A stretch of DNA of 64,000 bases, taken from the IMG/VR virus record IMGVR_UViG_3300022885_000003, positions 32,001-96,000 of that record. The stretch is one strand, 5' to 3'. A model generated the notes under the pieces. The model was not told where the DNA came from. It was given only the letters and a program-made list of their open reading frames with translations, and did no database searches. This stretch comes from a virus. Below, piece after piece: positions 1,242 to 63,033 of this stretch. Made by a program: the position numbers and the translations under genes. Every line of letters begins with the position of its first letter. Position 1 is the first letter of the stretch.

Positions 1242-1272
1242 TTGACAATTCTATTTTAATCAAGTATAAATA
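1242..1272 (+). promoter_or_regulatory. tRNA promoter: sigma70 site overlapping a T4-like late TATAAATA
   Basis: TTGACA-N17-TATAAATA directly upstream of the tRNA. Confidence 0.65.
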
Positions 1273-2199: not shown

Positions 2200-2445
2200 A
2201 TGAATACAGCAAAAGTTCGCCTACCAAACGGTCGTCGTCTAACAGCCGTTGTTGGTGGTATCAACGACACGGGTTATCGCACCGCCAAGGTAAAGATGGT
2301 CCGTTCTGACGGTGAGCAGGTTACTATTGCTGGCCGTATCACTACGCGCCATGGTTTTGACCGCACACTTCCTTTTGAAGTCAACATGCTCGGCACAAAT
2401 GCCATTCATGCTTTCGAAGGAGATGACACAGTTTACTCAAAGTAA
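2200..2445 (+). CDS. hypothetical basic beta-rich protein
   Basis: GAGGG RBS before ATG 2200; followed by a terminator-like hairpin. Confidence 0.7.
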   Translation: MNTAKVRLPNGRRLTAVVGGINDTGYRTAKVKMVRSDGEQVTIAGRITTRHGFDRTLPFEVNMLGTNAIHAFEGDDTVYSK

Positions 2446-2465
2446 ATTGTCGACGATTGTACAGT

Positions 2466-2508
2466 GAAAAAGCGTCGATCGGTGTTAGGGTGCTGACGGC
2501 GTTTTTTC
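2466..2508 (+). terminator. putative intrinsic terminator
   Basis: GAAAAAGCGTCG...CGGCGTTTTTTC imperfect inverted repeat with U tract. Confidence 0.5.
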
Positions 2509-2548
2509 ATTTGTAATACATTGACATCATTAATGAAAATATCGCTTT

Positions 2549-2824
2549 ATGCTATATAAATATACGAAATACAATCCCTGTACGTACAGATTAATCGATC
2601 ATTATGAACATCACATAATAATTGAAAAGCATGAACATCAAATTGTATTCCCAAATAACCATATGGATGATAAAATATTTGAATGGTGCAATGAAATAAT
2701 TGGAAACTTTTGTACTCCATTCAATAAAACACGTTCATTCGCTTGTTCAAGTCGGCACTCGGATCCATTTTATGTGTTTACTTCTTACGACGATGCGTTA
2801 TTGTTTAAGGTGACGTGGGAATAG
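2549..2824 (+). CDS. FKLxW-family small protein
   Basis: EWCNE...VFTSYDDALLFKVTW; TTGACA upstream. Confidence 0.75.
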   Translation: MLYKYTKYNPCTYRLIDHYEHHIIIEKHEHQIVFPNNHMDDKIFEWCNEIIGNFCTPFNKTRSFACSSRHSDPFYVFTSYDDALLFKVTWE

Positions 2825-2888
2825 AAATTGACATAATCTTAAATAATGTTATACTCTATCTATACAGAGATAATTGCAGGATTAAAAT

Positions 2889-3068
2889 ATGTCATTTGAA
2901 ATTCAGAATAAACCGGCATTAATTTGTGGCGTTGTGTTCATGTGTCTATCCTTGATACCTGGATATGACACGATAGTATTAGATGCTGGGCCGATACCAT
3001 TTCTTTTATTTCCAATTTTCATAGCCGTATCACTAGGATCTCTTGCTGCGGCATTTACAAAAATTTAA
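2889..3068 (+). CDS. 59-aa two-TM membrane protein (below the ORF-track cut-off)
   Basis: MSFEIQNKPALICGVVFMCLSLIPG...FLLFPIFIAVSLGSLAAAFTKI*; AGGA RBS, TTGACA promoter at 2828. Confidence 0.65.
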   Translation: MSFEIQNKPALICGVVFMCLSLIPGYDTIVLDAGPIPFLLFPIFIAVSLGSLAAAFTKI

Positions 3069-3171
3069 ATCGAGACGGGAATGATAGAAAGATATTTTTA
3101 CAAATATCACGCAATGTTATCATTTTTAAGGTATTGTAACTTTCTCAAAAATTGCTATAATAACAGATATT

Positions 3172-3396
3172 ATGACATCATATATTGTTAGATACCAACA
3201 TTATCACGACCCTTTTGAAAGCCACGAAAGCGAAGTCGTTGATTGGTTAAAGTATAATACCGACAATGGCTATATTAAGGAGTCTAATTGGGATATGACG
3301 ATAAACAGCAATCTCGAGGCCATATATAGCAGGATATTAAGAGTTCGCTTCATGAACAAAGACGACGCCATAATATTTAAATTGAGATGGGTATGA
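3172..3396 (+). CDS. FKLxW-family small protein
   Basis: DWLKYN...RFMNKDDAIIFKLRW. Confidence 0.75.
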   Translation: MTSYIVRYQHYHDPFESHESEVVDWLKYNTDNGYIKESNWDMTINSNLEAIYSRILRVRFMNKDDAIIFKLRWV

Positions 3397-14747: not shown

Positions 14748-14806
14748 TTGACAATCTCTAATTTAATGCTATAATTATGACATAAGTAAACAACAGGAGA
14801 TCGAAC
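14748..14806 (+). promoter_or_regulatory. early promoter plus conserved leader cassette
   Basis: TTGACA-N16-TATAAT (TGn extended -10), then TATGACATAAG..AAACAACAGGAGATCGAAC-ATG. Confidence 0.75.
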
Positions 14807-15045: not shown

Positions 15046-15102
15046 TTGACAATCTCCAATTTCATGCTATAATATAGCATGACAACGAAGAAGGAGATCG
15101 AA
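15046..15102 (+). promoter_or_regulatory. early promoter plus leader, near copy of 14748
   Basis: TTGACAATCTCCAATTTCATGCTATAAT ... AAGGAGATCGAA-ATG. Confidence 0.75.
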
Positions 15103-31649: not shown

Positions 31650-32189
31650 ATGAAAACAAATAATTTACGTCAATGGATGAATATACTTGAAAGCAAAGAT
31701 GATTTGAAATTAGATAAACTTTCCTTTTCAAAAGATTCGTTATCTCCAATCATGAGTAAAGAAACTATTGATATACATTATGATATTCTTACAAAAAATT
31801 ATCACAAAAATGCCAAGGACGGCGATCCTTTTCAGATTGCGGGGGCATTCTTACATGATTTGTTCTGGGAGAATTTACAACCACCAACGGACAACAACAA
31901 ACCATTAAATGATTTCTTAGAATTAATCAATGATAAATTTGGATCATTGGCTAAGTTCAAATCTGAGTTTGAGGAAACAGCAACCACAATACAAGGTAAT
32001 GGTTGGTGTGCTCTAACGAAGTCAGGGAAGATTGTTCAAATATCCAATCACAAAAAACGTTCTGATATCATATTGTTACTTGACATGTGGGAACACGCTT
32101 ATTTCTTGGATTATGGCGCAGACAAGAAAAAATACGCTAAAAGCTTTTGGAAAATTGTTAATTGGGAAACGGTGAACGGGAGGCTCTAA
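31650..32189 (+). CDS. Fe/Mn superoxide dismutase (compact) with a putative capsid-targeting leader
   Basis: Metal ligands IHY, HDLFW, DMWEHAY; leader MKTNNLRQWMNILE. Confidence 0.9.
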   Translation: MKTNNLRQWMNILESKDDLKLDKLSFSKDSLSPIMSKETIDIHYDILTKNYHKNAKDGDPFQIAGAFLHDLFWENLQPPTDNNKPLNDFLELINDKFGSLAKFKSEFEETATTIQGNGWCALTKSGKIVQISNHKKRSDIILLLDMWEHAYFLDYGADKKKYAKSFWKIVNWETVNGRL

Positions 32190-34763: not shown

Positions 34764-34878
34764 ATTGGGTTATTATATTATAATTATATGATATTTGTCA
34801 ATAGTAAACATAATGTTTTTTTATAATTGGTTAGGCTAAATAACAATGAGCAGCAGGTAAACATAAAAGGAAACTGAT

Positions 34879-39232: not shown

Positions 39233-39682
39233 ATGTCACTAGTGAGAACATCAAAAGGCACGCTAATTGATATGGCGGCTTTAGCAACAAAGAATAAAAA
39301 AATTGTAGCAGTTTCTGGAGGCGGCGTTTCGATGAACGCCCAAGGGGATATTCTCGGAAAAGGCGGTAAGGTTATAAGGTCACGTAAAGACCTAGAAGCT
39401 GCATACGCTGCCTATACTGAGGCTAATCCACAGGGAGCAACACAAGTCAATATTCGATCTAAGAATATCACCCCAGATAAATTTAAAAATCGTCGAGCAC
39501 CAACTGAAGAAAACGAAAAAGTGGTTCTCGAATTGGATGATGTTACAAATATGCTAAATGGTAAAGTGCCTGAATCACCCAAACCAGAAGAACCAATTGA
39601 AGATAATGATTCTGAAGACGAAAGTAGAGACGAGGAAATTGCTAAAAAGTCCCGAAAGCGTAAGACCGTGGAGGAGGAATAA
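39233..39682 (+). CDS. phage late protein of unknown function
   Basis: TATAAATA promoter, AAGGAG RBS; RTSKG..IDM..L..MNAQGDILGKGG. Confidence 0.7.
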   Translation: MSLVRTSKGTLIDMAALATKNKKIVAVSGGGVSMNAQGDILGKGGKVIRSRKDLEAAYAAYTEANPQGATQVNIRSKNITPDKFKNRRAPTEENEKVVLELDDVTNMLNGKVPESPKPEEPIEDNDSEDESRDEEIAKKSRKRKTVEEE

Positions 39683-40098
39683 TGAACGCATTGTTGGAAT
39701 TTGATAATGTGGAAAACAAAAAATGTATTTATAATAGTCTAAATTCAGACCTTGACGGTACTCTCCAAACAAAGGCATGCCAATTCTACGACGATCTATT
39801 TAATATTATGCACAATGTTGAAGAAATAATAAACGACGATGAATTTGTTCACCTAGTTCTTCCAATTGCCAAATATGTGATAAGCAATTATGACATTACT
39901 AATATTCAAGATTCTGCATTAAAATTAAGCAACTATCTAAGCCAATTTCTTATATATAAAAATGGATCGAGACATTATGTGGTACCATGTGAAATTATAA
40001 AGAATTATCCTGGTAACAAACATATGAAAGATATCGATGTCATGATTGTTCTCGCATGTGATTTTATAAATTATTTCCAAGATAGAAAGGGTTATTAA
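39682..40098 (+). CDS. hypothetical protein
   Basis: GGAGG RBS, coupled ORF. Confidence 0.65.
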   Translation: MNALLEFDNVENKKCIYNSLNSDLDGTLQTKACQFYDDLFNIMHNVEEIINDDEFVHLVLPIAKYVISNYDITNIQDSALKLSNYLSQFLIYKNGSRHYVVPCEIIKNYPGNKHMKDIDVMIVLACDFINYFQDRKGY

Positions 40099-40100
40099 GA

Positions 40101-40433
40101 ATGTCCGAAATGAAAGAACCTTATGTTCACACAATCACCGGTGATGTACAACCATTGAAAGATGGAGTTTTAGTTACTGATATGGAATATGGTGAACAAA
40201 AAACTGGTCGCGGTATTATTATACTACATGACGATGGTAAAGATGCAGGAATTCGCCCACGTTGGTGTACTGTATACAGTGTTGGGTCTGAAGTTGATTA
40301 TGTAAAGAAGGGTGAGCGCATCCTTGTTGCTCATGCCCGTTGGACGCGCGGAGTTAAAATTAAAGCTGGTACACCTGAAGAAAAAGTAATTCGAATGGTT
40401 GATACTGACGAGATTTTGTTAGTTCAAGAATGA
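40101..40433 (+). CDS. groES: GroES-like co-chaperonin
   Basis: QPLKDGVLV...KTGRGII...VYSVG..VKKGERILV. Confidence 0.8.
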   Translation: MSEMKEPYVHTITGDVQPLKDGVLVTDMEYGEQKTGRGIIILHDDGKDAGIRPRWCTVYSVGSEVDYVKKGERILVAHARWTRGVKIKAGTPEEKVIRMVDTDEILLVQE

Positions 40434-40434
40434 T

Positions 40435-40695
40435 ATGTTTATCCATAGTTCACCCTCATCGGATGATCCATATGGTCTGTACAATTACCAAATTTTAATA
40501 AGAGATCATTATCCGAACGAAGTCGTCAATTGGGTCAATAATAAAAATATCACCAAATGGCTTTCAGTTAATTTAATGATAGAAGATTATGGCTATTCAT
40601 GGATTGAAGAAACTTCTCAAGTTTCATTAGTAATTATGTTTAGTTTTCATGGTGATTATGTTCAATTCCTAAAAACATTCATATTATGTAAGTGA
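40435..40695 (+). CDS. divergent FKLxW-family-like small protein
   Basis: KWLSVN...FSFHGDYVQFLKTF. Confidence 0.55.
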   Translation: MFIHSSPSSDDPYGLYNYQILIRDHYPNEVVNWVNNKNITKWLSVNLMIEDYGYSWIEETSQVSLVIMFSFHGDYVQFLKTFILCK

Positions 40696-41111
40696 CTTTC
40701 ATGGACCAATATAAACAGAGAGTAATCAAGTTTGTTATTAATTGTTTAACCGGTTCAATCACAACCGTATTTGTTTTATCTATATATTGCTTACTAATTT
40801 GTATTATGGTGTTAATAGCTATTAATGAATCAATAAAATACATCATTGACAAAATATACAAATATCAAGAAGATATAATGTATGATTACAATTTTAGAAT
40901 AGATGAATTTAGAACATGGTCTAAAGGACAAATACCTTGGTATGCTTGGTATCACCGTAAGCAGCGTGTATACTATGATGAAGAAATGGATGTATTTTTT
41001 CCATTAAATGATTTTTTATCAAATGATATTGGTGGGTGCTATATAACAACCAGTTATAAACTATATTTTTTACGAAAATCAGATCAAGTGTTATACAAAT
41101 TGAGTTTCTAA
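40692..41111 (+). CDS. FKLxW-family protein (start uncertain, possibly 40878)
   Basis: YFLRKSDQVLYKLSF. Confidence 0.6.
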   Translation: MTFMDQYKQRVIKFVINCLTGSITTVFVLSIYCLLICIMVLIAINESIKYIIDKIYKYQEDIMYDYNFRIDEFRTWSKGQIPWYAWYHRKQRVYYDEEMDVFFPLNDFLSNDIGGCYITTSYKLYFLRKSDQVLYKLSF

Positions 41112-41166
41112 ATTGACTTATTATGACAATAATTGTTATAATGATGTATAATTATGGAGATACTAA

Positions 41167-41985
41167 ATGATAACCAATGAAGCAACTAGTATTCGTCGTT
41201 CCATGCATCTGAACGTAACGGATATGAAATTCCTATCCGAAAAAGAACGACTTGTATTTTTAGAAAACAAGTTTATTATAGACATGGAAGATAACAAAGC
41301 ATCAGAATCACCCATCGAAGAATTCTTTTCAACGATGCGTGACTCATGTAAGCATTTCTATCATGTAAGTTCTCCCGAGAAGAAAAATGACAGACTTGTT
41401 TATTACATTTATTTCTCTTCTAAAGATGATGTGCAGCGGATACATTCAAAAATATTAAAACCCATGGGGAAAGAGTTGAGTGAAAATGATATAATATTCT
41501 TGGATAATGAAACTAAAAGGAATATGTTGAATAATAAATTTGCTCTAACTACATTAGAAGACGATGAATCTGATGAGATTGAGTGTCTAAAGCAGATTAG
41601 AGCAAAATATAAACACTATTTTTACATTGGTGCCACGGTTATAAGCAATGATAATAATTATGTAACACGACATATATATTTTGAAAATGCAAAGGATGCA
41701 GAAAAAATCAAATCAGAATATTTATCACCAACCAAAGAACTCGTAACATCAGATTTAGAATGCCTGCGTGATGATATCAAATCTAAACTTTTGCAAAATA
41801 AATTCATTGTGCGAACAAATGAAGAAAAAAGAGATGCTATCTTTGAAAATTATAAATCATGGCTTCGAGAAAATTGTGAAAGCTTTTTCTACTTGGGTGA
41901 TAAGAAATATGATAAAGGTGATTCAGTATTCTATATCTATTTTGAAGACCAAGAAGAAGCAAAATTATTTAAACTAACGTTTTAA
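41167..41985 (+). CDS. protein with three tandem FKLxW-family domains
   Basis: 3x (L.NKF...FY....IYF....D/E); last unit ends FEDQEEAKLFKLTF; own early promoter at 41113. Confidence 0.8.
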   Translation: MITNEATSIRRSMHLNVTDMKFLSEKERLVFLENKFIIDMEDNKASESPIEEFFSTMRDSCKHFYHVSSPEKKNDRLVYYIYFSSKDDVQRIHSKILKPMGKELSENDIIFLDNETKRNMLNNKFALTTLEDDESDEIECLKQIRAKYKHYFYIGATVISNDNNYVTRHIYFENAKDAEKIKSEYLSPTKELVTSDLECLRDDIKSKLLQNKFIVRTNEEKRDAIFENYKSWLRENCESFFYLGDKKYDKGDSVFYIYFEDQEEAKLFKLTF

Positions 41986-48599: not shown

Positions 48600-48658
48600 G
48601 TTCTTTTCCCTTTTTTAATGTAAAGTATTATAACGCGGCATCAATCCATTGTCAACAG

Positions 48659-52126: not shown

Positions 52127-52189
52127 TTTCGATCTCCGTGTTGCTGTTTGCTTATGTCATAATTATAACATGGAATGACGACATGTCAA
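52127..52189 (-). promoter_or_regulatory. early promoter plus conserved leader cassette
   Basis: TTGACA-N16-TATAAT-TATGACATAAGCAAACAGCAACACGGAGATCGAAA-ATG. Confidence 0.75.
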
Positions 52190-52974: not shown

Positions 52975-53035
52975 ATCGATCCCTTTGATTCCGTGTTATG
53001 CTATTATTATAACATGGATCGATATGTTGTCAACC

Positions 53036-54231: not shown

Positions 54232-54261
54232 AATAGCATTATAACACCATTATGTAAAATG

Positions 54262-54933
54262 TCAAGCTAGTAATTGCGGCAGATAATGTTCCCATGACAA
54301 TGGTATTGCATAATAACTATTTGGTCCAGTAATTAATACCTCTTTTCCTTCTTCAATAGCCATTTCTAAATTTGTATTCATTGGTTCATACTGTTCAGTC
54401 ATCAAATAAAGTTGATCCATAATAAATTTCTCCGCTGTTGGAAAATCGTTATGTGATTCATCATCGTCTAAGTTACGATATTCCTCGAGACTATCATCGA
54501 TGATTGCGTTGAATACAAAATACATATAATCACCTTTATTTTGGTTTTTGAACCAAGTATATTGGAATCCATTCATCGGAAACACAATAAACGGAGATCC
54601 CCAATCTTTGGCAATCTTCATACGGGGACTAGTAAAAATTGAATTTCCTCGAACAGCCTTCATGCCTTGTCTATGCAACACATCGTCAATCATATCCTGG
54701 CGATTACTACTCATATCAACAGGTGTTCTATATTCCCAATAATCTATTTTATTGCCCGTTGGTCGGATTCCATTTATTCCTCTATATAAAGCGTTTCCGT
54801 TTGCTTTACGATAAACATCAATGATTTCTGAACAATCATTTTGAATTAGTTCGACAAATTCGTCTACACTTGAAACTATATCATCTAATTCTTCGGTATG
54901 TGGTGCTTCTTCTGTTAATTCATTGTATCTCAT
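54262..54933 (-). CDS. CTS-leader protein with an ADP-ribosyltransferase-like domain
   Basis: MRYNELTEE; LYRG...IFTS...WG..FIVFP...EVLI pattern; paralogous to the C-domain of 58124. Confidence 0.55.
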   Translation of the reverse strand: MRYNELTEEAPHTEELDDIVSSVDEFVELIQNDCSEIIDVYRKANGNALYRGINGIRPTGNKIDYWEYRTPVDMSSNRQDMIDDVLHRQGMKAVRGNSIFTSPRMKIAKDWGSPFIVFPMNGFQYTWFKNQNKGDYMYFVFNAIIDDSLEEYRNLDDDESHNDFPTAEKFIMDQLYLMTEQYEPMNTNLEMAIEEGKEVLITGPNSYYAIPLSWEHYLPQLLA

Positions 54934-55691
54934 TCGGTATAGTCCTTAATAACGCGATATACAGTTTTTAGGAATTTTTTCCATGTTTCACCAGCAGCTG
55001 GATTGTTTCGCAACGAATTATAATATTCTTTCATAGTATTTGAATACTGGATAGCATCTTTAATTCCATCCTGTGTTCTCAATTTGCTTAGAATAGTTTC
55101 CAAGTCTCTATCATAGGCAAATAGTAACTGATGAGCGGCATTATTGGCATAAGCTTCAATCTCAATTGGTTGCCCAAAATAATCTGTCCTCTCATTCCCT
55201 GTATTTGATAAACTTTTATCAAAACCATACATCTCTTTTTCTTGGTCTAATGGTCTTTTGTTTATTTGGATAAAATGTAAAACTTCGTGCGAGAACATTT
55301 GGGCCAGTAAATTTGAAATCTGTTCCACGTCTCCTTCACCTTTAATAATATCAATAAAATGTTGCTTATCAACATAAAGCTCAATCGATAATTTATTAGT
55401 GGAATATTCCATATTTCCCATTTCATCTGCTTTATGAGTAAAAATAGTCAACATAATGGAAAATTCATCACTGAAATTAATTGTAAAGTAAGAATTTAAA
55501 TCAATATTTTTTACTATTTTCCTAAACGCATTTTCCAATTTATCAGATAAAAGTCTTGAGCAAGAAAGAATATTTCGATTATGAATATCACCTGTACCGA
55601 AATATTCATTTAAGACCTGCATAGAATGTTTATATGCTACATCATAAAATGGTTTAGTATTTGTCCGATCCAATAATTCATATAAACGCAT
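54930..55691 (-). CDS. CTS-leader protein with a zincin metallopeptidase motif
   Basis: MRLYELL; HEVLH plus Y...P.EIEAYA. Confidence 0.7.
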   Translation of the reverse strand: MRLYELLDRTNTKPFYDVAYKHSMQVLNEYFGTGDIHNRNILSCSRLLSDKLENAFRKIVKNIDLNSYFTINFSDEFSIMLTIFTHKADEMGNMEYSTNKLSIELYVDKQHFIDIIKGEGDVEQISNLLAQMFSHEVLHFIQINKRPLDQEKEMYGFDKSLSNTGNERTDYFGQPIEIEAYANNAAHQLLFAYDRDLETILSKLRTQDGIKDAIQYSNTMKEYYNSLRNNPAAGETWKKFLKTVYRVIKDYTE

Positions 55692-56815
55692 TATAATTCT
55701 CTTATATAATTCTGTGCATCTCGTATATTGTCGAATCGTTCATTATTGATATAAAATTCCATTTTATCACGTTGATCTCTAAGTTGTCTTAATGCATATT
55801 TTTTTGTTTCAGGTGACATGGAATTAAATTCCATACCAAATTCTTGCGGGCGGTCATACACTCTTATCCATCCTCGATTTAACGCAACTTCCAAATAACC
55901 TTCTAAATCTAAATCTTCTGGGTCATCTACATATTGATTTAAATGATCAGAGGCTACATTTTCGTGGTGGTAATCGTTTTCGTAATCAACATCGATTCTA
56001 TTACCATTCTCATCTATCCACCACCCTTTCCAATCTTTAGTGATATTGAAGTTTTCGTCAATAACGGTATTTCCCATATTTTTTATATTGTCTGGATGCA
56101 ATGGCCCCGGAACTGATTCACCACCATCGAAATATCTTAGTTCAACTGGTAACGTTTTCCAACCAAGTTTAGCTGCGGCCATAATACGATGATTTCCTTC
56201 ACTTACCCAAGGTTGACCGTCATATCCAACAACGATAAATGGAGCGTATTCCGAATCATTATCCTTAGACATTGGTGGTAGTCTATCATTGGCCTGCATG
56301 TAATTTGTTAGCCAATCCAAATCTTCTTGTCGAACGTTCTTCTGTTCGCCACTGGCTCCAGGTATATTTTTTAAAAGAGATACTGGTAAACGAACATAAT
56401 CACTGAATGAGCCAGTCATTGTGCTCATAAAAGGCTTACCGTGTACATTCCGACCCATTTCTTTGGCATATTCGATCTTTCCACGTAACCAATCACCGCC
56501 AGGGTTATCTACTCTAAGTTTTGTCTGATTGCCGCTATTTTCATTTATATTTTCGGATACGGTGATCCTATTACCAACTTGTCCTTTCATATAATTAGAA
56601 GCGGATAATGCATCGTTGATAGGAGTGCCGTTAACCATCCAGGATGAAACACCTCGATCGTTCCATTCGTTAACATCTTTAAGAATAGAATTAAATTCTT
56701 CTTCGATTATGATGCTTGGATCAAAGGTGATTGTAACTTCAGCCGTTGATGGATTAACATCAAATCCTTCGAAGATTGGTTCATATTTATAATCGAATAG
56801 TTCTTTTAAATACAT
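55691..56815 (-). CDS. CTS-leader multidomain protein with ParB/Srx-like and GWIR domains
   Basis: MYLKELF; PFIVV...EGNHRIMAAAKLG; C-terminal WWID..H..GWIRV domain. Confidence 0.7.
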   Translation of the reverse strand: MYLKELFDYKYEPIFEGFDVNPSTAEVTITFDPSIIIEEEFNSILKDVNEWNDRGVSSWMVNGTPINDALSASNYMKGQVGNRITVSENINENSGNQTKLRVDNPGGDWLRGKIEYAKEMGRNVHGKPFMSTMTGSFSDYVRLPVSLLKNIPGASGEQKNVRQEDLDWLTNYMQANDRLPPMSKDNDSEYAPFIVVGYDGQPWVSEGNHRIMAAAKLGWKTLPVELRYFDGGESVPGPLHPDNIKNMGNTVIDENFNITKDWKGWWIDENGNRIDVDYENDYHHENVASDHLNQYVDDPEDLDLEGYLEVALNRGWIRVYDRPQEFGMEFNSMSPETKKYALRQLRDQRDKMEFYINNERFDNIRDAQNYIREL

Positions 56816-56816
56816 A

Positions 56817-58121
56817 TCAAACCTTATATTTTGATTCAGCAGCTTCTAATATATTATATTTATATTCATCATACTTATCACGTTTCTTTCTATATTGTCT
56901 CTCAAGTTTGAACGCATTTTCAATTGCTGGTAATGATGAATCTAAATAAATTACGCCATCTCTTTCTTCGGTATATTTTAAATCTTGTATCGACTCGGAG
57001 AAATCACTTGCTGATTCCTCTATATCTAATCCATCACCATCCCTAGTCACGATCTGCAACGATGCATAAAGAAGCATAGTTTCGGCTCTATTGTTTTCAT
57101 AATCAATGGAATATAAAAATGCGTTGCCCTTTGCATCATTTCCACGGATTAATGAATAACCCATAATATAATCTCTTGCACCCTCAAATGATATTTCGCT
57201 TTCGTAAATATCTTTATGATAAACAAGTGCGCCAGATTCAGTGTCCATAATCAACCAATTTTTGTAATCGTTTACATAATCAGTCTTTGGTTCATCTTTA
57301 TATTCTGGTCTATCATCTAAATCTTTTATAATTTCCTTTACTCGACTAGATGATATCTTTCCAGATTTAACCAGTTTTGAATAAGTACCATCTGCTAATG
57401 CTTCTCGAACAAACTTGTTCCATACACGCTTTACTTGTGCAGATCCCGCATATGTGGTCCCACCAGTGTTCTTTTCTGGATAGCGTTCTCTATAAATTTT
57501 ACCAAGCAATGTACCAAAACCATATGAACGGTATTCTTGCGCAACACTTACAAGAATTGCACCCCATTCATCTTGTGCAACAGCAACTTTTTGAGCATCG
57601 TTATTGAAGATTGCAAAATCGCCATTATCCTCTCTTATTTGGAAAGATTGGCCCTTAATTTTAATATTTTGTAGCAGTTTTGAATATTTGCTACGTTGGG
57701 CTATTGCTTCTTTTTGCTTGAAATAAGCCATTGGATACTTTACATATTTTATGATTAAATCACCGTTAACTAACCGATCTACATCGCGCTTCAATGCCCT
57801 GTCATCAAATCCCTTAATAATATATAAAACATTATCCACGGTATAACCAATTAATGAATGACTATCCTTTTTGAATACACGCAAATCATTATCATTATGG
57901 GATTGAATAATTTCCTTATCCATTGCTTGACCAGCTTGTGGATCAACAATTTTCCCACCTAAATCAATTCTATTCATTTGGTCCAAATCCCAATTGTAAG
58001 CTTCATCTGAATGATGCTTTCCGCCAGGATTCATTACCTCCCAATATTCTTCCCAAGTCATAAGAGCTGGATTTTGTGGATGGCTTAAAGGAATTTTTTC
58101 AAATAATTGATGAAGATACAT
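56817..58121 (-). CDS. CTS-leader protein with a GNAT-like acetyltransferase domain
   Basis: MYLHQLFE; VSVAQEYRSYGFGTLL acetyl-CoA motif A, TYAGS..KRVW. Confidence 0.65.
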   Translation of the reverse strand: MYLHQLFEKIPLSHPQNPALMTWEEYWEVMNPGGKHHSDEAYNWDLDQMNRIDLGGKIVDPQAGQAMDKEIIQSHNDNDLRVFKKDSHSLIGYTVDNVLYIIKGFDDRALKRDVDRLVNGDLIIKYVKYPMAYFKQKEAIAQRSKYSKLLQNIKIKGQSFQIREDNGDFAIFNNDAQKVAVAQDEWGAILVSVAQEYRSYGFGTLLGKIYRERYPEKNTGGTTYAGSAQVKRVWNKFVREALADGTYSKLVKSGKISSSRVKEIIKDLDDRPEYKDEPKTDYVNDYKNWLIMDTESGALVYHKDIYESEISFEGARDYIMGYSLIRGNDAKGNAFLYSIDYENNRAETMLLYASLQIVTRDGDGLDIEESASDFSESIQDLKYTEERDGVIYLDSSLPAIENAFKLERQYRKKRDKYDEYKYNILEAAESKYKV

Positions 58122-58123
58122 GA

Positions 58124-59453
58124 TTATTTTTCCTTTTGGGTTTTTCGAGAAGGAAACGGTTTTTCCTCACGGATTGTAAAATTGGCAACATATGATAACT
58201 CATCTGGTGATAATTTATATAGAACATCTTCCAAATCTATATGTTCGTACAACCATGGATATATAACGTCATTCACCATAAAATCATTTATCCAAAGCAC
58301 TTGTTTAGCTTTAAGCATAATCTCCATTTCTGATTCAATTGCGGCTGCTAAATCATCATCTCTATAATTCTCTTTAATAAAGTATACTGCATAATCATAA
58401 TTTAACAATAAACCATCCAAATTCTTACGACGAAGTTTAAATGTAATATCGAGTTTAGATTTATAATCTTCAACAAAATCGTCACTTCTACGTGGATCAT
58501 CTAATAGATCCTGAAACCAAGCAATGCTTGATTCCCAGGTGGGATCGTGTTCTTCTCCATTCTCATCGGCGGATTTTATTTCGTCTTTGTAATCATTAAG
58601 CTCATCTTGCCATGTAGCTGCATATTTTTGATATATATCACTAAATATCTCGCTTTTATCTTTATCACTAATATCCAACCATTTTTCTGCACTTTTATAA
58701 TCATTGCTCAGCAATGTGAAGAAATCTTCAACCATTGGGCTCCAAGTAAAACTAAATTCTCCTAATGGGAAAACCGCGCCAAGGGTACCATATGCTCCTG
58801 CTTCTGTCATATCACCAGTGACAAAGAAGTCATCTCGGTTTGCTTTAAAACCAGCTTCAGAAAATGCTTTTATTAAATCATTGTGTATATTAAGTGGTGT
58901 ATTCTTGGGGTTGGTTCGAGTTGAAAGATTTTTAATAATTCCCATATCCGGGCTTAATATTTTGTTTGATGCTCCATGCCACATAATCTTGCCATTGGTT
59001 CGTATTAAGAATTGTTCCATTATATTCCAAATATCTTCATCGATGTCCTGTAAATGTGCATAGGCTTCTTGAACCAAGTCATCTTGATCTTCAGTCAATC
59101 TTTCTTCAAATAATTCCGAATCATGAACTAAATGTTCCACGTCGATAATTTTAGCTTCTGAAACTGAAAATTCTGTTTCCCTATCTTCCAAATTTCCTGT
59201 AATTAATTCAGTTGGATCAAATTCTAAAGTAAGAAGAACTTCATTCTCAGAAAGCTCAGAATAATATGTTAAAACATATTCTTTATCTAAACTCATATAA
59301 ATGCCATTACCACGCATTTGAATTGTTTCGCCGACACGAATAGGAAAGCTCAATCGTTTATTGGCACCTGCTAATAGCACGGCCTGTTTCAGGATCATAT
59401 GCCATCACCTTATAAGCGATATTTTTTTGGTTATGAAGTTCTGTTAATTTCAT
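58124..59453 (-). CDS. CTS-leader two-domain protein (ART-like), split by a +1 frameshift near 59370
   Basis: ATG 59453 encodes MKLTELH...AYDPETGRAIS then stops at 59358; the +1 frame continues GANKRLSF... to 58124; WHGA..FFVT..YG..VFP..EIML. Confidence 0.6.
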
Positions 59454-59458
59454 GGTTC

Positions 59459-60790
59459 TTATTCCTTCAATGCAAACACGATATGACCTTCGTCGATAAT
59501 ATCAAAATTTCTTTTGATATAATCATTGCCGTTGGCTATCATAATATCCTGTAACAATTCAGCACAATCCATAACATATCTGTCTTCACCATCTATCCAT
59601 TTTTTATCCAATTCCAATCGATGACTAGTTTTTGGGCTTAATCCTAATTCCTTCATAGCCGCATTATGAATAAGTTTAGCGGCGTCCCACCAATAAAATG
59701 ACCCTGTATCGTATGCATATATTCCACGCAATTCTTGATATCCGCTTTTATCTGCAAAACGCTTTAATTGTTTATATTCAGGATCAACCATTGCAACTAC
59801 ATCTTCATTACCGATATCCATCTTTTCAATACGATATTCATCTAGCTTTTCCGATGGCATCAATTTCTTAATTCTACCCTTAAAAATCTGCTGATCACCT
59901 TTATTTGTTTTGGCGATTGGTTGATTGTTCTTGTCTTTCTTAAAGCCCTTAATCTCTGCTTTGCGGTTTTTAAACTTACCAACCATAAGTGTGTCACCAA
60001 CGTTAAGGGTTGGTAGCTTTAGGCTATCTTCATCTTCATTGATGGTTTCTCGGTCTAAAATCTTAATCTGTTTATCAGAGAACGTAACCCATGTCGTTTG
60101 ATCATCATCTTCTAATTTAAGACCATCATATCCACGTCCGATAAGCTCATCTGTTCCAAATTTGTCATATTCTTTCCAACCAGCAGGATTTTTAATGTCT
60201 AGTTCAGCGGTGATAATTGTACCTTTTGAACTAGCACCGACTCCTCCTTGCAGAATCAAATCTTTATTATCAGTAAACCATGTCAAAGTACCAATAGCAA
60301 ATTCGTCATTAAATGAATCAAATGACGCGCCGGTGCCATGATATGCAATAATTTTATCGTCCAAGGATTCTTTTAGATTCGAACCGGTGATTTTATCTTC
60401 AAATGAATGAACACGTCTCTCAACCTTTGCCACCCATTCTTTGGACGGACGTTTTCCTTTTGGGCCATCATAATATTGCAAAACTTTTTTTGGGTTGCTC
60501 TTGCTCACTAGTGCCCATTTTCCGTTAACCTGCTTTAATGTTTCAGTCATGAAGCCTGGTTGTTCCGCTTTATCTAATCGATCATAATAGTCGATAAATT
60601 CATCCAAATGATCTAATGAAATTTCTCGAGCTTCTGCTTCATTATTGGTATGTTCTAGTTCCACCTTAATACCTTTAACAATTTCAGATTCGACCCGAGA
60701 AACACTGACACCATGTTTTTTTGCGATTTCCTCTGCTGATGGTGTTTGTTTACCAATCAGATCCTTTTCATATAACTCAAATGCTCTCAT
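59459..60790 (-). CDS. CTS-leader polyvalent protein: DUF5661-like + small domain + ART-like (YHGT) + two further domains
   Basis: MRAFELYE; GIKVELEHT..I.LDHLDE..DYY..L; AYHGT...WFT...GYDG; linkers MTE, LKE, INE, LDE. Confidence 0.75.
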   Translation of the reverse strand: MRAFELYEKDLIGKQTPSAEEIAKKHGVSVSRVESEIVKGIKVELEHTNNEAEAREISLDHLDEFIDYYDRLDKAEQPGFMTETLKQVNGKWALVSKSNPKKVLQYYDGPKGKRPSKEWVAKVERRVHSFEDKITGSNLKESLDDKIIAYHGTGASFDSFNDEFAIGTLTWFTDNKDLILQGGVGASSKGTIITAELDIKNPAGWKEYDKFGTDELIGRGYDGLKLEDDDQTTWVTFSDKQIKILDRETINEDEDSLKLPTLNVGDTLMVGKFKNRKAEIKGFKKDKNNQPIAKTNKGDQQIFKGRIKKLMPSEKLDEYRIEKMDIGNEDVVAMVDPEYKQLKRFADKSGYQELRGIYAYDTGSFYWWDAAKLIHNAAMKELGLSPKTSHRLELDKKWIDGEDRYVMDCAELLQDIMIANGNDYIKRNFDIIDEGHIVFALKE

Positions 60791-61884
60791 TGTTTTTCTT
60801 TCCTCGTTTCCTTCATATCATTTATTATCTCGGATACAAGCCTAGGTGGTATGTTAAACATTTGGGCGGTTTTATTTATTGATGAATTCTCACCCTTTTT
60901 CTCTAAATGCATTACCATATCAAAAATCCTTTTCTTTGTACCATATGATAATATATTCTTCTTAAATGAACGAGTAATTGCTGGTATACTCCACTCATCA
61001 ACCGTTGATTTACGGTTGTCTTTAAGGAATTTTCTTATTTCATGCTTACCATCTAATGTTTCGTAATTATTCTTCTCATCCGATACGTGATATGATTCAC
61101 CACTTCGGTTATTGGTTATCAACCAACGCAATGCTTTTGCAACATCATGTAATGTCTTACCTTGTAAAATTGCTTGACCACTTGCATCATGATATCTTAC
61201 CCATCCTTTATCAAATAATATTCTACCAACTGGGCTATCAGGGTCGGTGGATTTAACATCTTCTAGTGACACGTTGTCAAATATTTTACCACTTAACCCC
61301 ATCTTTTCTGGATGATCATACGCAAATTTTATATGGTGCGTTTCATTAGAATTTAAAGGAATGACCTTTGCATTTTTTGGATCGTTGGTCGGATTAATCC
61401 ATAGTTTTTCATCGGCTATTGATTTAATGTGTGCTTCTCGAAACTGGGAAACCGAACTACGGTCTTTTTCTGGAAATCTACCATATCGTAGCCAATAATC
61501 CATGTCATACCCTTTTAGCTCAATCCAACTACGACTGGAAAACTCTTCATAAAAGGTATCAAATAAAATTGCTTCAAGTGGATAGATTTTATTGATTTGG
61601 CGTGCGGCTTTTAGGATTATCTCATTGCTATCGCCCTGCATAGATAGCGCAGTTGTTCCATCTCGAGACAACTCCATATTGCAACGGATCCATCCCATGT
61701 CACCAACAACTTCCATAAGAGTAGAACTCCAACCACCGATTTGAGTGATCGTATCTTGATCCAAATCAAATAGTTCTGGATGATCTTTGACAATCTGAAA
61801 ATGTTCTTGGTTTCGGGCCGGTATAATTCTGTTATCTTCTGAAAGATTTGGATTATACCAAAAACTTCTGGGTAGCTCAGTCAT
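60787..61884 (-). CDS. late protein with two W.NP..H..GW[IV]R domains
   Basis: FWYNP..H..P..GWIR and LWINP..H..P..GWVR repeats; TATAAATA upstream. Confidence 0.7.
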   Translation of the reverse strand: MTELPRSFWYNPNLSEDNRIIPARNQEHFQIVKDHPELFDLDQDTITQIGGWSSTLMEVVGDMGWIRCNMELSRDGTTALSMQGDSNEIILKAARQINKIYPLEAILFDTFYEEFSSRSWIELKGYDMDYWLRYGRFPEKDRSSVSQFREAHIKSIADEKLWINPTNDPKNAKVIPLNSNETHHIKFAYDHPEKMGLSGKIFDNVSLEDVKSTDPDSPVGRILFDKGWVRYHDASGQAILQGKTLHDVAKALRWLITNNRSGESYHVSDEKNNYETLDGKHEIRKFLKDNRKSTVDEWSIPAITRSFKKNILSYGTKKRIFDMVMHLEKKGENSSINKTAQMFNIPPRLVSEIINDMKETRKEKQ

Positions 61885-61941
61885 AAATATCCCCTTTGTT
61901 ATATATTATTTATAATTTCAGGGAGGAGAGGTGTTAGGAAA

Positions 61942-63033
61942 TTATTTGGTTATCTTTGCAGCCAATTTCGCCGAATCCCACATGCTTGGTGGATTGCCAT
62001 CCTTATCAAGTTTATTGCCGAATTTAGCTGCTTGGCGCTGTGTTTCGCCTTGTTTAACATCGACTGTGGTGTTAACACCAGGGACAATTAAACCATCTTC
62101 CATAATAACCGTAACATTATCAAATGTCAATTTAAAATCTAAAACAAAATTTTCAGCATTCTGTTCATTATTAAACAATAATATTGCAATATTTGGTAAT
62201 GGTGCATTATGATCTGGTGCAATGCCATCGAGATCAATATCATAATAACCCGGATCAATAGCAATACCATCGCTAGTTGCTGTAATAACAACGGATGGGT
62301 GTGAGCCTTTAATTACATTACGTAATATTCCATAATCATCACGATAATCATCAATCCAATTATTAATTTCGGCATATTCGTTCTGAAATATTTCATTAAT
62401 CTGAATATCTATCAAGCGTTTTTCAGATTCTGATAGCATATTACTATATGCATTATTTGGCGCCCATTCCAATAGATCTTTTATTGAAGTATTATCTATT
62501 TGTTTAGACATTGCGCGAAAAAGGCTACCTTTTTTTTTAGTAAACTTAATTTCTTCTTTCAACGGTTTTGGTGACCAATCGCTGTTAAATGGTCTTATAA
62601 ATTCATCGGCAAACTCTAGATCAAGGTTCCATTCTGGTAGATCCTCTACATCGCCGGAAAAATCATAACTTAAACTCAAATGCGGGATATATTCAGGGAA
62701 ATCGTATTTAATATCGTTCTTATCTTTAATTTCCGTATGACGCTTTGATAGAGCTGGTTCTGCGAAAGCAACAACTAACACATTATTATCTTCGCCAAAG
62801 AGTTTATACTCACAATCTTTAGCCTTTATTTTAAGAGCTGGATCATATGATTCAGGTGCTTCCGAAAATGTCTTTTCTTTATCAATGATAATAGTTGTGT
62901 GGAAATCATCATGCACATTTTCAATTTTATTCTTTTTACACCATTCTACAATTTTATCATTGCATTCATCGGTGGGATTCATTCCCATAAATGTTCCTGA
63001 AGTTTTACCTTCTAATAGTTCTTGATATCTCAT
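61942..63033 (-). CDS. CTS-leader protein with an N-terminal Acb1 (T4 gp57B)-like 2H phosphoesterase
   Basis: Start MRYQELLE (GAGGGAG RBS, TAAATA); FHTTI and PHLSLSY HxT/S motifs; LVV..L..RH..YDF.EY.PH.SLSY...DW layout as in Acb1. Confidence 0.8.
   Translation of the reverse strand: MRYQELLEGKTSGTFMGMNPTDECNDKIVEWCKKNKIENVHDDFHTTIIIDKEKTFSEAPESYDPALKIKAKDCEYKLFGEDNNVLVVAFAEPALSKRHTEIKDKNDIKYDFPEYIPHLSLSYDFSGDVEDLPEWNLDLEFADEFIRPFNSDWSPKPLKEEIKFTKKKGSLFRAMSKQIDNTSIKDLLEWAPNNAYSNMLSESEKRLIDIQINEIFQNEYAEINNWIDDYRDDYGILRNVIKGSHPSVVITATSDGIAIDPGYYDIDLDGIAPDHNAPLPNIAILLFNNEQNAENFVLDFKLTFDNVTVIMEDGLIVPGVNTTVDVKQGETQRQAAKFGNKLDKDGNPPSMWDSAKLAAKITK

Follow-up and report, generated by a model that had tools for sequence, protein, structure and literature searches.

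The question raised by the locus described here is why closely packed viral genes, whose products are otherwise unrelated, should open with nearly the same eight residues. The window, a stretch of 64,000 nucleotides, comprises bases 32001-96000 of the 114,738-base IMG/VR record IMGVR_UViG_3300022885_000003, which is estimated to hold 31% of the virus genome. Positions without a prefix follow the numbering of the window, whereas positions marked "genome" refer to the whole record. At 54262-63033 eight tightly packed open reading frames (ORFs) are situated on the minus strand. We consider it probable (roughly 0.7) that this block encodes virion cargo proteins of a jumbo phage resembling the Agrobacterium phage Atu_ph07, loaded for delivery to the next host.

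A leader peptide common to unrelated genes

The genes of the block and their leaders are the following:

61942..63033, minus strand: gene 1, 363 aa, leader MRYQELLE at 63010-63033
60787..61884, minus strand: gene 2, 365 aa, starts MTE, without leader
59459..60790, minus strand: gene 3, 443 aa, leader MRAFELYE at 60767-60790, then five modules
59358..59453, minus strand: leader ORF of gene 4, 31 codons, opens MKLTELH and then reaches a stop
58124..59398, minus strand: main ORF of gene 4, 424 aa
56817..58121, minus strand: gene 5, 434 aa, leader MYLHQLFE at 58098-58121
55691..56815, minus strand: gene 6, 374 aa, leader MYLKELFD at 56792-56815, last residue Asp
54930..55691, minus strand: gene 7, 253 aa, leader MRLYELLD at 55668-55691, last residue Asp
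54262..54933, minus strand: gene 8, 223 aa, leader MRYNELTE, start at 54933

A first-pass annotation made from the letters alone had counted the leader in seven of the eight genes. Six of them carry it in frame, with the pattern M-[RY]-x-x-[EQ]-L-x-[ED]; MKLTELH is split off from the 424-aa ORF of gene 4 by a +1 frame shift with an overlap of 13 codons, and gene 2 has no leader. Gene 4 may be truly frameshifted, or the break may stem from an error of assembly. Reading the 13-codon overlap by eye, we saw no obvious slippery site for programmed frameshifting, and a search of viral contigs for relatives of gene 4 that could settle the matter found none. In protein 6 an additional I-F-E is present at residues 14-16, beyond the leader that ends in Asp. 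Megablast of the block against GenBank phages gave no match.

The leader is observed directly, and far above chance, on the whole contig. A simple gene call on all 114.7 kb yielded 170 genes, about 27 of which are tagged. The start M[RKY]xx[EQ]L is seen about 25 times, against 0.18 expected in 170 genes from the amino-acid composition. At genome 18905-30963 all but one gene in a run of 18 are tagged (17 genes), and tagged pairs lie at genome 2565-4927 and 12708-13791. Of 27 leaders, 24 have R or K at position 2, 25 have E at position 5 and 26 have L at position 6; position 8 holds E in 20 cases and D in three, so that the end of the tag fits (L/I)-x-E, the cleavage motif of the T4 prohead protease gp21. 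The sequences downstream of the leader differ from one tagged gene to the next and are mutually unrelated. The roughly 27 genes thus share a short N-terminal propeptide on otherwise unrelated proteins, which is the arrangement of T4-type cargo with a capsid targeting sequence (CTS).

A common start could also arise at the level of the DNA, as a cassette boundary without any role for the peptide, either a recombination hotspot or a "self-punctuating" junction that gives the upstream gene its stop codon. The packing of the genes, with ATGA and 14-nt overlaps, and the nearly exact repetition of the DNA of the commonest leader would suit this explanation. However, different codons encode the same peptide: the leader codons vary synonymously (one copy of MRAIELYE uses CGC GCC ATC) and the DNA upstream of the leaders is not conserved, suggesting that selection acts on the leader peptide. 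In addition, the Atu_ph07 words MRWEQLTE and MRLIDLLE keep the E-L-x-E pattern and predict presence in the virion, and internal copies of the tag are situated at protein joints where there is no gene boundary. We therefore regard a pure DNA boundary as very improbable.

About 39 of 41 matching viral contigs (IMG/VR loci L032-L072) share one conserved gene that begins with the exact word MRAIELYE (MRAIELYESAA[TS]). In a 349-kb contig (L043) the product of this gene, at 2348-3301 on the minus strand, bears the tag together with an HELTH zincin motif and a stretch similar, as judged by eye, to sigma-70 region 4; its neighbour genes start MRATEFIIE and MKIKQITE.

Tagged proteins in the virions of Atu_ph07

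Homologues in Atu_ph07 were found for 40 of the 170 contig proteins, arranged in collinear blocks, and protein 5 also matches Salicola phage SCTP-2. Both phages, the nearest relatives in culture, encode a Peptidase_S77 prohead protease of the T4 gp21 type, which in Atu_ph07 is gp204 (PMC6102473 Table S3). The Peptidase_S77 profile gave no match on the 114.7-kb contig, and tblastn of the contig with the protease, capsid, portal, terminase and sheath proteins of Atu_ph07 found nothing. Consequently, the head module does not lie on this fragment of about 31% of the genome, and the phage's own protease cannot be seen. Tail-fibre and baseplate-like genes are carried on the fragment.

For purified virions of Atu_ph07 a protein list obtained by electrospray ionisation tandem mass spectrometry has been published (Attai et al. 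2018; PMC6102473 Table S5). We mapped 140 rows of this table to ORFs via molecular weight and position; 38 unambiguous anchors were strictly collinear. Eighteen of the 19 Atu_ph07 ORFs that start M[RK]xx[EQD]LxE are in the virion table, compared with a background of 140 in 714 (hypergeometric P 1e-12, a value that overstates independence because 13 of the 19 proteins share modules). After removal of the leader the 19 ORFs fall into seven families, and six of these were detected in virions (P about 3e-4). The tag is thus not spread over the non-virion genes of Atu_ph07. Looser leaders are found in the virion table as well, namely MQYTDLIE in gp394, MLLSELFD in gp483 and MRLSEILE in gp548.

The same relation is seen from the side of the contig. 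Among the proteins with an Atu_ph07 homologue, 12 of 13 tagged ones map to virion proteins versus 8 of 27 untagged ones (Fisher P 4e-4). From the block itself, the homologues of proteins 8, 4 and 5 are gp60, gp63 and gp377, respectively, all virion proteins, the last with six peptides. The earlier proposal that proteins of this kind are loaded into virions is thereby borne out in the relative. Two further tagged virion proteins of Atu_ph07 hold effector-type domains: gp381 gives a weak match to ART-PolyVal (ART, ADP-ribosyltransferase), and gp53 contains a Zeta-toxin-type kinase domain (1.5e-14):

39484-41820 (L073:8485-10821), minus strand: Atu_ph07 gp53, 778 aa, leader MKWNDLNE, 31 virion peptides

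On the published gel gp53 (87 kDa) was most abundant in the slice of about 22 kDa, as if it had been diced, and the tagged proteins gp482 and gp483 (32-34 kDa) were most abundant in the slice of about 15 kDa. A term search of PMC6102473 gave no mention of an N-terminal motif, leader or cleavage.

Presence in the particle would also be expected if the tagged proteins were structural or head-core (scaffold-like) parts that are not ejected, the tag being a signal for assembly or trimming. The Atu_ph07 data show virion association only, and the largest tagged family, gp55-62 (about 30 kDa), is abundant, with 7-13 peptides for each member; it has no proven enzyme activity and its ART fold is unconfirmed. 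Against this, clear enzyme domains are tagged (Acb1, ART-PolyVal and, in Atu_ph07, the Zeta-toxin kinase), the set of domains is the one described for polyvalent proteins (PMC5512222), and the T4 cargo with such tags is ejected (PMC9026906). A structural role appears unlikely to us, and delivered cargo remains our preferred reading.

A second type of leader was noticed on a 179-aa protein at 31650-32189, plus strand, just past the tail-fibre genes, which starts MKTNNLRQWMNILE. The pattern x-L-R-K/Q-aromatic-x-N-I-L-x-E is also present on the Atu_ph07 virion proteins gp33, gp206 and gp594 and on two SCTP-2 proteins; gp594 runs far below its predicted size. Orthologues of protein 5 from other lineages (P0123-P0127) keep the mature start G-L-M-T-x-E-E-F and differ in their N-terminal extensions (e.g. 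...LQAAATPLP...), which points to propeptides that vary with the lineage and are perhaps suited to different proteases.

Domains, modules and hydrophobic-x-Glu joints

The following features were located within the eight genes; h-x-E denotes a hydrophobic-x-Glu site:

62569-62997, minus strand: Acb1-like 2H phosphoesterase of gene 1, Pfam PF23474
62893-62904 (FHTT) and 62674-62685 (PHLS), minus strand: Acb1 H-x-T/S motifs of gene 1, both present
62554-62565, minus strand: PLKE joint of gene 1, an h-x-E site
62098-62550, minus strand: inserted 150-aa module of gene 1 ending VIME, between two h-x-E sites
61945-62097, minus strand: C-terminal DG-L-IVPGVNTT module of gene 1, 51 residues
61684-61695 and 61195-61206, minus strand: GW[IV]R motifs of gene 2, two domain copies, internal repeat E 8e-6
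60560-60769, minus strand: DUF5661 of gene 3, Pfam 1.3e-12
60392-60550, minus strand: module B of gene 3, from homology break-points
60053-60343, minus strand: ART-PolyVal of gene 3, Pfam 3.9e-9
59858-60028, minus strand: module D of gene 3, from homology break-points
59462-59833, minus strand: module E of gene 3, from homology break-points
59090-59119, minus strand: internal leader relic SELFEE/RLTE of gene 4, aligns with paralogue leaders
58259-59116, minus strand: member of the ART-like paralogue family in gene 4, from the paralogue alignment
57393-57680, minus strand: central GNAT-like domain of gene 5, AlphaFold2 model fold matches
57513-57536, minus strand: EYRSYGFG of gene 5, candidate acetyl-CoA-type motif
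56141-56392, minus strand: ParB-like segment of gene 6, weak PHROG matches, with the motif GNHR at 56186-56197
55862-55873, minus strand: GWIR motif of gene 6, C-terminal domain
55275-55289, minus strand: HEVLH zincin motif of gene 7, a sequence motif
54778-54789 (LYRG) and 54634-54648 (GNSIF), minus strand: ART-like family motifs of gene 8, paralogue family

Three of the domain types proposed in the first-pass annotation, Acb1-like, DUF5661-like and the repeated GW[IV]R domain, were recovered as proposed. Protein 1 matches Acb1 with 2.6e-19 and 69.8 bits at a gathering cut-off of 27, covering model positions 2-143 of 144. It is likely a nuclease directed against CBASS (the phage-defence signalling system based on cyclic oligonucleotides), an activity predicted from the sequence. 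The GW[IV]R domain occurs in three copies, two in protein 2 and one at the C-terminus of protein 6, the latter matching the repeat of protein 2 with E 1e-3. Protein 2 had no family match in Pfam, PHROG or NCBIfam and the ESM Atlas gave no lead; NCBIfam returned nothing for any of the eight block proteins.

The other proposals held in part. One of three suggested ART-like units is the ART-PolyVal domain of protein 3, and the other two are weakly supported. Proteins 4 and 8 belong to a paralogue family of 10 members in which the columns YRG, NS-x-F and a late E(I/V) are conserved; in protein 4 the family member follows an N-terminal domain and the internal leader relic. For the model of protein 8 (predicted local distance difference test score, pLDDT, 64) VIA-align places Arr, exotoxin A, cholix toxin and PARP only among low-scoring entries (Z 2.7-4.1), and Foldseek gave no match at E<=0.001. 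An ART fold of the family is plausible. Protein 5 had no Pfam match; its GNAT assignment comes from the fold, as the top 10 Foldseek matches of the AlphaFold2 model (pLDDT 74) are all HAT1, MYST or GNAT (probability 0.9-0.99, E 6e-3 to 0.1). The motif EYRSYGFG (EYR-x-x-G-x-G) is invariant in seven homologues of protein 5. The suggested ParB/Srx-like domain corresponds to residues 142-225 of protein 6, which match three ParB-like PHROG families weakly (E 6e-4 to 4e-3) and include GNHR; a ParB match was absent in Pfam, NCBIfam and the PDB sequences. The HEXXH peptidase proposed for protein 7 is present as the motif HEVLH. In the ESM Atlas the nearest clusters are viral, with weak leads to SprT-like, M48 and LPD23 proteins (TM score 0.42 to SprT-like, 0.52 to a viral BepA-like cluster), and no profile in Pfam or NCBIfam matched. 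A phmmer search of the PDB sequences with proteins 5, 6 and 7 found nothing.

Protein 3, with five modules, and protein 1, with three, combine several unrelated conflict-type domains on one polypeptide, and such modules are recombined across hundreds of metagenomic proteins, as in polyvalent proteins. The shuffling is directly visible in 158 database relatives of protein 3, which share one or two modules each at 50-84% identity within very different architectures; their companion domains include NT5C, GNAT, ParB, Acb1 and others. The homology break-points divide protein 3 into its five modules, and the linkers hold FMTE, NLKE, TINE and KLDE. It had been claimed that the domains are joined at h-x-E sites, and indeed the named sites fall on break-points. 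Protein 3 has MTE, LKE, INE and LDE there, protein 1 has LKE and IME, and protein 4 has LFE/LTE.

The position of these sites was compared with chance in non-redundant relatives. Module B has [LIV]-x-E in front in 31 of 32 contexts versus 15 in the shuffled expectation, and module D has h-x-E at most 12 residues ahead in 18 of 20 versus 7, the background rate for random 12-mers being 19%. For modules A and C of protein 3 the excess was not significant. In relative P0129 Acb1 is fused at LKE straight to the C-terminal module; protein 1 has a further 150 residues between the two, inserted behind LKE and closing with IME. A search of 1.84 billion representative proteins with this C-terminal module (in protein 1 DG-L-IVPGVNTT-x-DV ... 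AAKFG ... G-x-PP), run without the preceding motif, gave 373 clusters at 50% identity. The motif [LIVMF]-x-E stands immediately ahead of the module in 84 of 91 non-redundant contexts, and in 30 of the 91 the module starts at residue 7-12, right behind an N-terminal leader (MKITELYE, MRLRELFE). The module may serve as an adaptor, either in binding to the core or in ejection. Relics of the leader also occur inside protein 4 (SELFEE) and inside a 538-aa protein at genome 18905 (RNKLNE), where they align with the N-terminal leaders of paralogues.

The joint pattern fits cutting by a head protease between the modules. For the further claim that the chains are cut into separate enzymes at these sites the support is comparative: h-x-E at joints far above chance, the leader relics, and the small gel sizes in Atu_ph07. 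The idea that tagged proteins avoid [LI]-x-E was dropped, as no difference was seen (ratio 1.13 in tagged versus 1.09 in untagged proteins). Since the motif is common across whole proteins, it predicts nothing by itself and its position carries the information.

Transcription, proposed route and known systems

The block had been described as driven by late-type promoters with the word TAAATA. This word was rejected as a promoter signal, since it is rarer than chance on the contig (145 seen, 220 expected); only the 8-mer TATAAATA, the T4 late box, is informative. It occurs 17 times on the contig, 11-12 of them within the 5% that is non-coding. The positions of the boxes in the block and of the perfect sigma-70 consensus promoters (TTGACA, 16-18 nt spacer, TATAAT) are:

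61907-61914, minus strand: late box TATAAATA, 23 nt before the ATG of gene 2, followed by AAAGGGG
56857-56864, minus strand: second TATAAATA box, within gene 5 at its 3' end; the ATG of gene 6 follows after 42 nt
54238-54265, minus strand: perfect sigma-70 promoter (TTGACA-16-TG-TATAAT), coinciding with the 3' end of the block
53006-53033, 52162-52189, 48627-48655, 34772-34801, 15046-15073 and 14748-14775: other perfect sigma-70 promoters in the window

The late box also precedes two other tagged blocks, and upstream of gene 1 only CTAAATAG is present. There are 12 perfect sigma-70 promoters on the contig, nearly all intergenic; most lie 6-34 nt before gene starts, and no tagged gene has one immediately ahead of it. 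It is probably the early units of the phage that begin with these promoters, and the one at 54238-54265 starts the next transcription unit, probably an early one. The description as late-promoter driven is thus supported in part, by the boxes before genes 2 and 6 and not by TAAATA; late expression of genes 2-8 is plausible, that of gene 1 unproven. A further TATAAATA was seen at 1265-1272, plus strand, about 25 nt before GCCGCTATAGCTCAGTTGG, which resembles the 5' end of a tRNA; this region may be a tRNA under a late-type promoter.

Late expression would also suit proteins that act in the cytoplasm late in infection and are packaged only incidentally, with the tag serving late translation or regulated turnover. 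Acb1, for example, could destroy CBASS signals triggered by the prohead protease: T4 gp21 is reported to activate CBASS late in infection (2026 preprint PMC12991175), so Acb1 would be useful there and, being made late, could also act before packaging. The late-type box before gene 2 agrees with this, and the virions of Atu_ph07, purified with polyethylene glycol (PEG), also held some cytoplasmic proteins. Nevertheless, the 18 tagged ORFs found in virions, many with high peptide counts, contrast with most other proteins of that phage, which are not there, and the tag ends in a protease motif that recurs at the module joints. We judge incidental packaging to be quite unlikely and retain cargo for delivery as the more convincing explanation.

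Several observations weigh against the cargo reading. A perfect sigma-70 promoter on the same strand at genome 96386-96413, about 1.4 kb upstream of gene 1, is separated from it by three small genes; no terminator was found between the two in the part that lies within the window, so early transcription of the block is allowed. Gene 2 lacks the tag and that of gene 4 is out of frame. The fragment carries neither a protease nor a head gene, and the tagged proteins were found in virions, by the published mass spectrometry, in the relative only. The PEG-purified sample of Atu_ph07 yielded a list that includes a few non-structural proteins, and the proteome shows only association with the virion, not a location in the capsid interior, trimming or ejection. 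The modules shared among the tagged Atu_ph07 proteins reduce the number of independent cases. The ART assignment of the family of proteins 4 and 8 is weak, as are the ParB and peptidase assignments. [LI]-x-E is common within the tagged proteins (85 sites in 7.7 k residues) without being enriched or depleted there, and h-x-E at fixed positions could be part of the module fold.

The route that we propose would be as follows. The tag would bind each protein to the core of the assembling head, and its L-x-E end would be the cutting site of a T4 gp21-type (S77) prohead protease, which would free the mature enzyme inside the head. The multi-module proteins 1, 3 and 4 would additionally be cut at the hydrophobic-x-E joints between their modules. 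The cargo, comprising an Acb1-like nuclease of cyclic-nucleotide immune signals, putative ART-type and GNAT-type modifiers, a ParB-like domain and a candidate zincin, would exit the particle along with the DNA and act on the defence and the host machinery of the new host. Since the leaders of genes 6 and 7 end in Asp, and Asp at position 10 of the T4 CTS blocks cutting and not loading (PMC9026906, PMC3012670), loading without trimming is predicted by analogy, and the products of these two genes may be loaded but not trimmed.

The protein cargo of jumbo phages is mostly unknown because most of their virion proteins are unannotated. If the eight-residue tag marks cargo, the list of 131 Atu_ph07 virion proteins gains an organising rule, and the same rule could be read in uncultured phages; the weapons pre-loaded here would then be an Acb1-type immune-signal nuclease, protein-modifying enzymes and a kinase-type toxin domain. 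More tentatively, and with somewhat less than even confidence, we suggest that tag and h-x-E joints together form a "cargo code" readable from sequence across hundreds of uncultured jumbo phages with T4-type head genes, that polyvalent effectors are true polyproteins diced in the head by the prohead protease, and that the 45-residue DG-K-IVPGVNTT module, which always follows a predicted cut site and in a third of contexts the tag itself, may be the actual adaptor through which the cargo binds the head core or is ejected. Were this true, the injected repertoire of a jumbo phage, including pre-loaded anti-CBASS nucleases, would be predictable from its genome alone, and the processing of polyvalent proteins would have a definite mechanism, in which the head protease cuts them at their joints and which can be tested in a cultured phage. 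In practical terms the tag could be a natural address for loading large phage heads with foreign proteins, a use already made of the T4 tag.

The closest known system is the CTS of T4. There the internal proteins and Alt carry a 10-residue sequence in which targeting is the task of residues 4 and 7 and processing that of residues 8 and 10, and the tag alone packages foreign proteins (PMC9026906, PMC3012670). As with IPI, IPII, IPIII, Alt and gp21 of T4, we find a short N-terminal tag that ends in (L/I)-x-E on otherwise unrelated proteins, a gp21-type S77 protease in the lineage, tagged proteins in virions (in the relative) and a cargo that holds predicted anti-defence and host-modifying enzymes; some leaders of database relatives, e.g. 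MKIYDIINE, approach the T4 tag. In contrast to T4, the tag has eight residues instead of 10 and a different word, M-R-A-I-E-L-Y-E, and about 27 tagged genes lie on a third of the genome where T4 has a handful. Several of the cargo proteins are moreover multi-module chains with the cutting motif at each joint, and the phage is known from sequence alone.

In the phiKZ-like giant phages (phiKZ, 201phi2-1, SPN3US) a T4-related prohead protease cuts dozens of ejection (E) and inner-body proteins of the head after Glu, and these are packed with the DNA and ejected (PMC9026906, PMC5694885); the block would follow the same principle. The phiKZ-like phages belong to a different lineage with another P3 preference, gp175/gp245 cutting at S/A/G-x-E, and their propeptides are long and varied rather than one short common tag. 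The anti-CBASS nuclease Acb1 is gp57B in T4; protein 1 agrees with the Pfam model over its full length and has retained both H-x-T/S motifs, but unlike gp57B it stands behind a capsid-type tag and is fused to two further modules. Our literature search did not bring up a packaged Acb1. It also found no account of Atu_ph07-like phages in which dozens of proteins bear a common tag, and none of polyvalent proteins with prohead-protease joints.

The polyvalent proteins (Iyer, Burroughs, Anand, de Souza, Aravind 2017; PMC5512222) resemble the block and its relative in their domains, which are ART-PolyVal, Zeta toxin (in Atu_ph07) and nucleotide-signal enzymes and, as candidates here, GNAT, ParB-like and zincin peptidase, in the free shuffling of modules, and in the prediction that they are packaged and injected. 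For their processing that paper proposes embedded peptidase domains, and a term search of it gave no description of a shared N-terminal tag. The proteins described here differ in being shorter (223-443 aa), in having a T4-type tag of their own and in bearing the prohead-protease motif at their joints. Both T4 CTS cargo and polyvalent proteins are thus already known, whereas the link of the tag to a published virion proteome is new.

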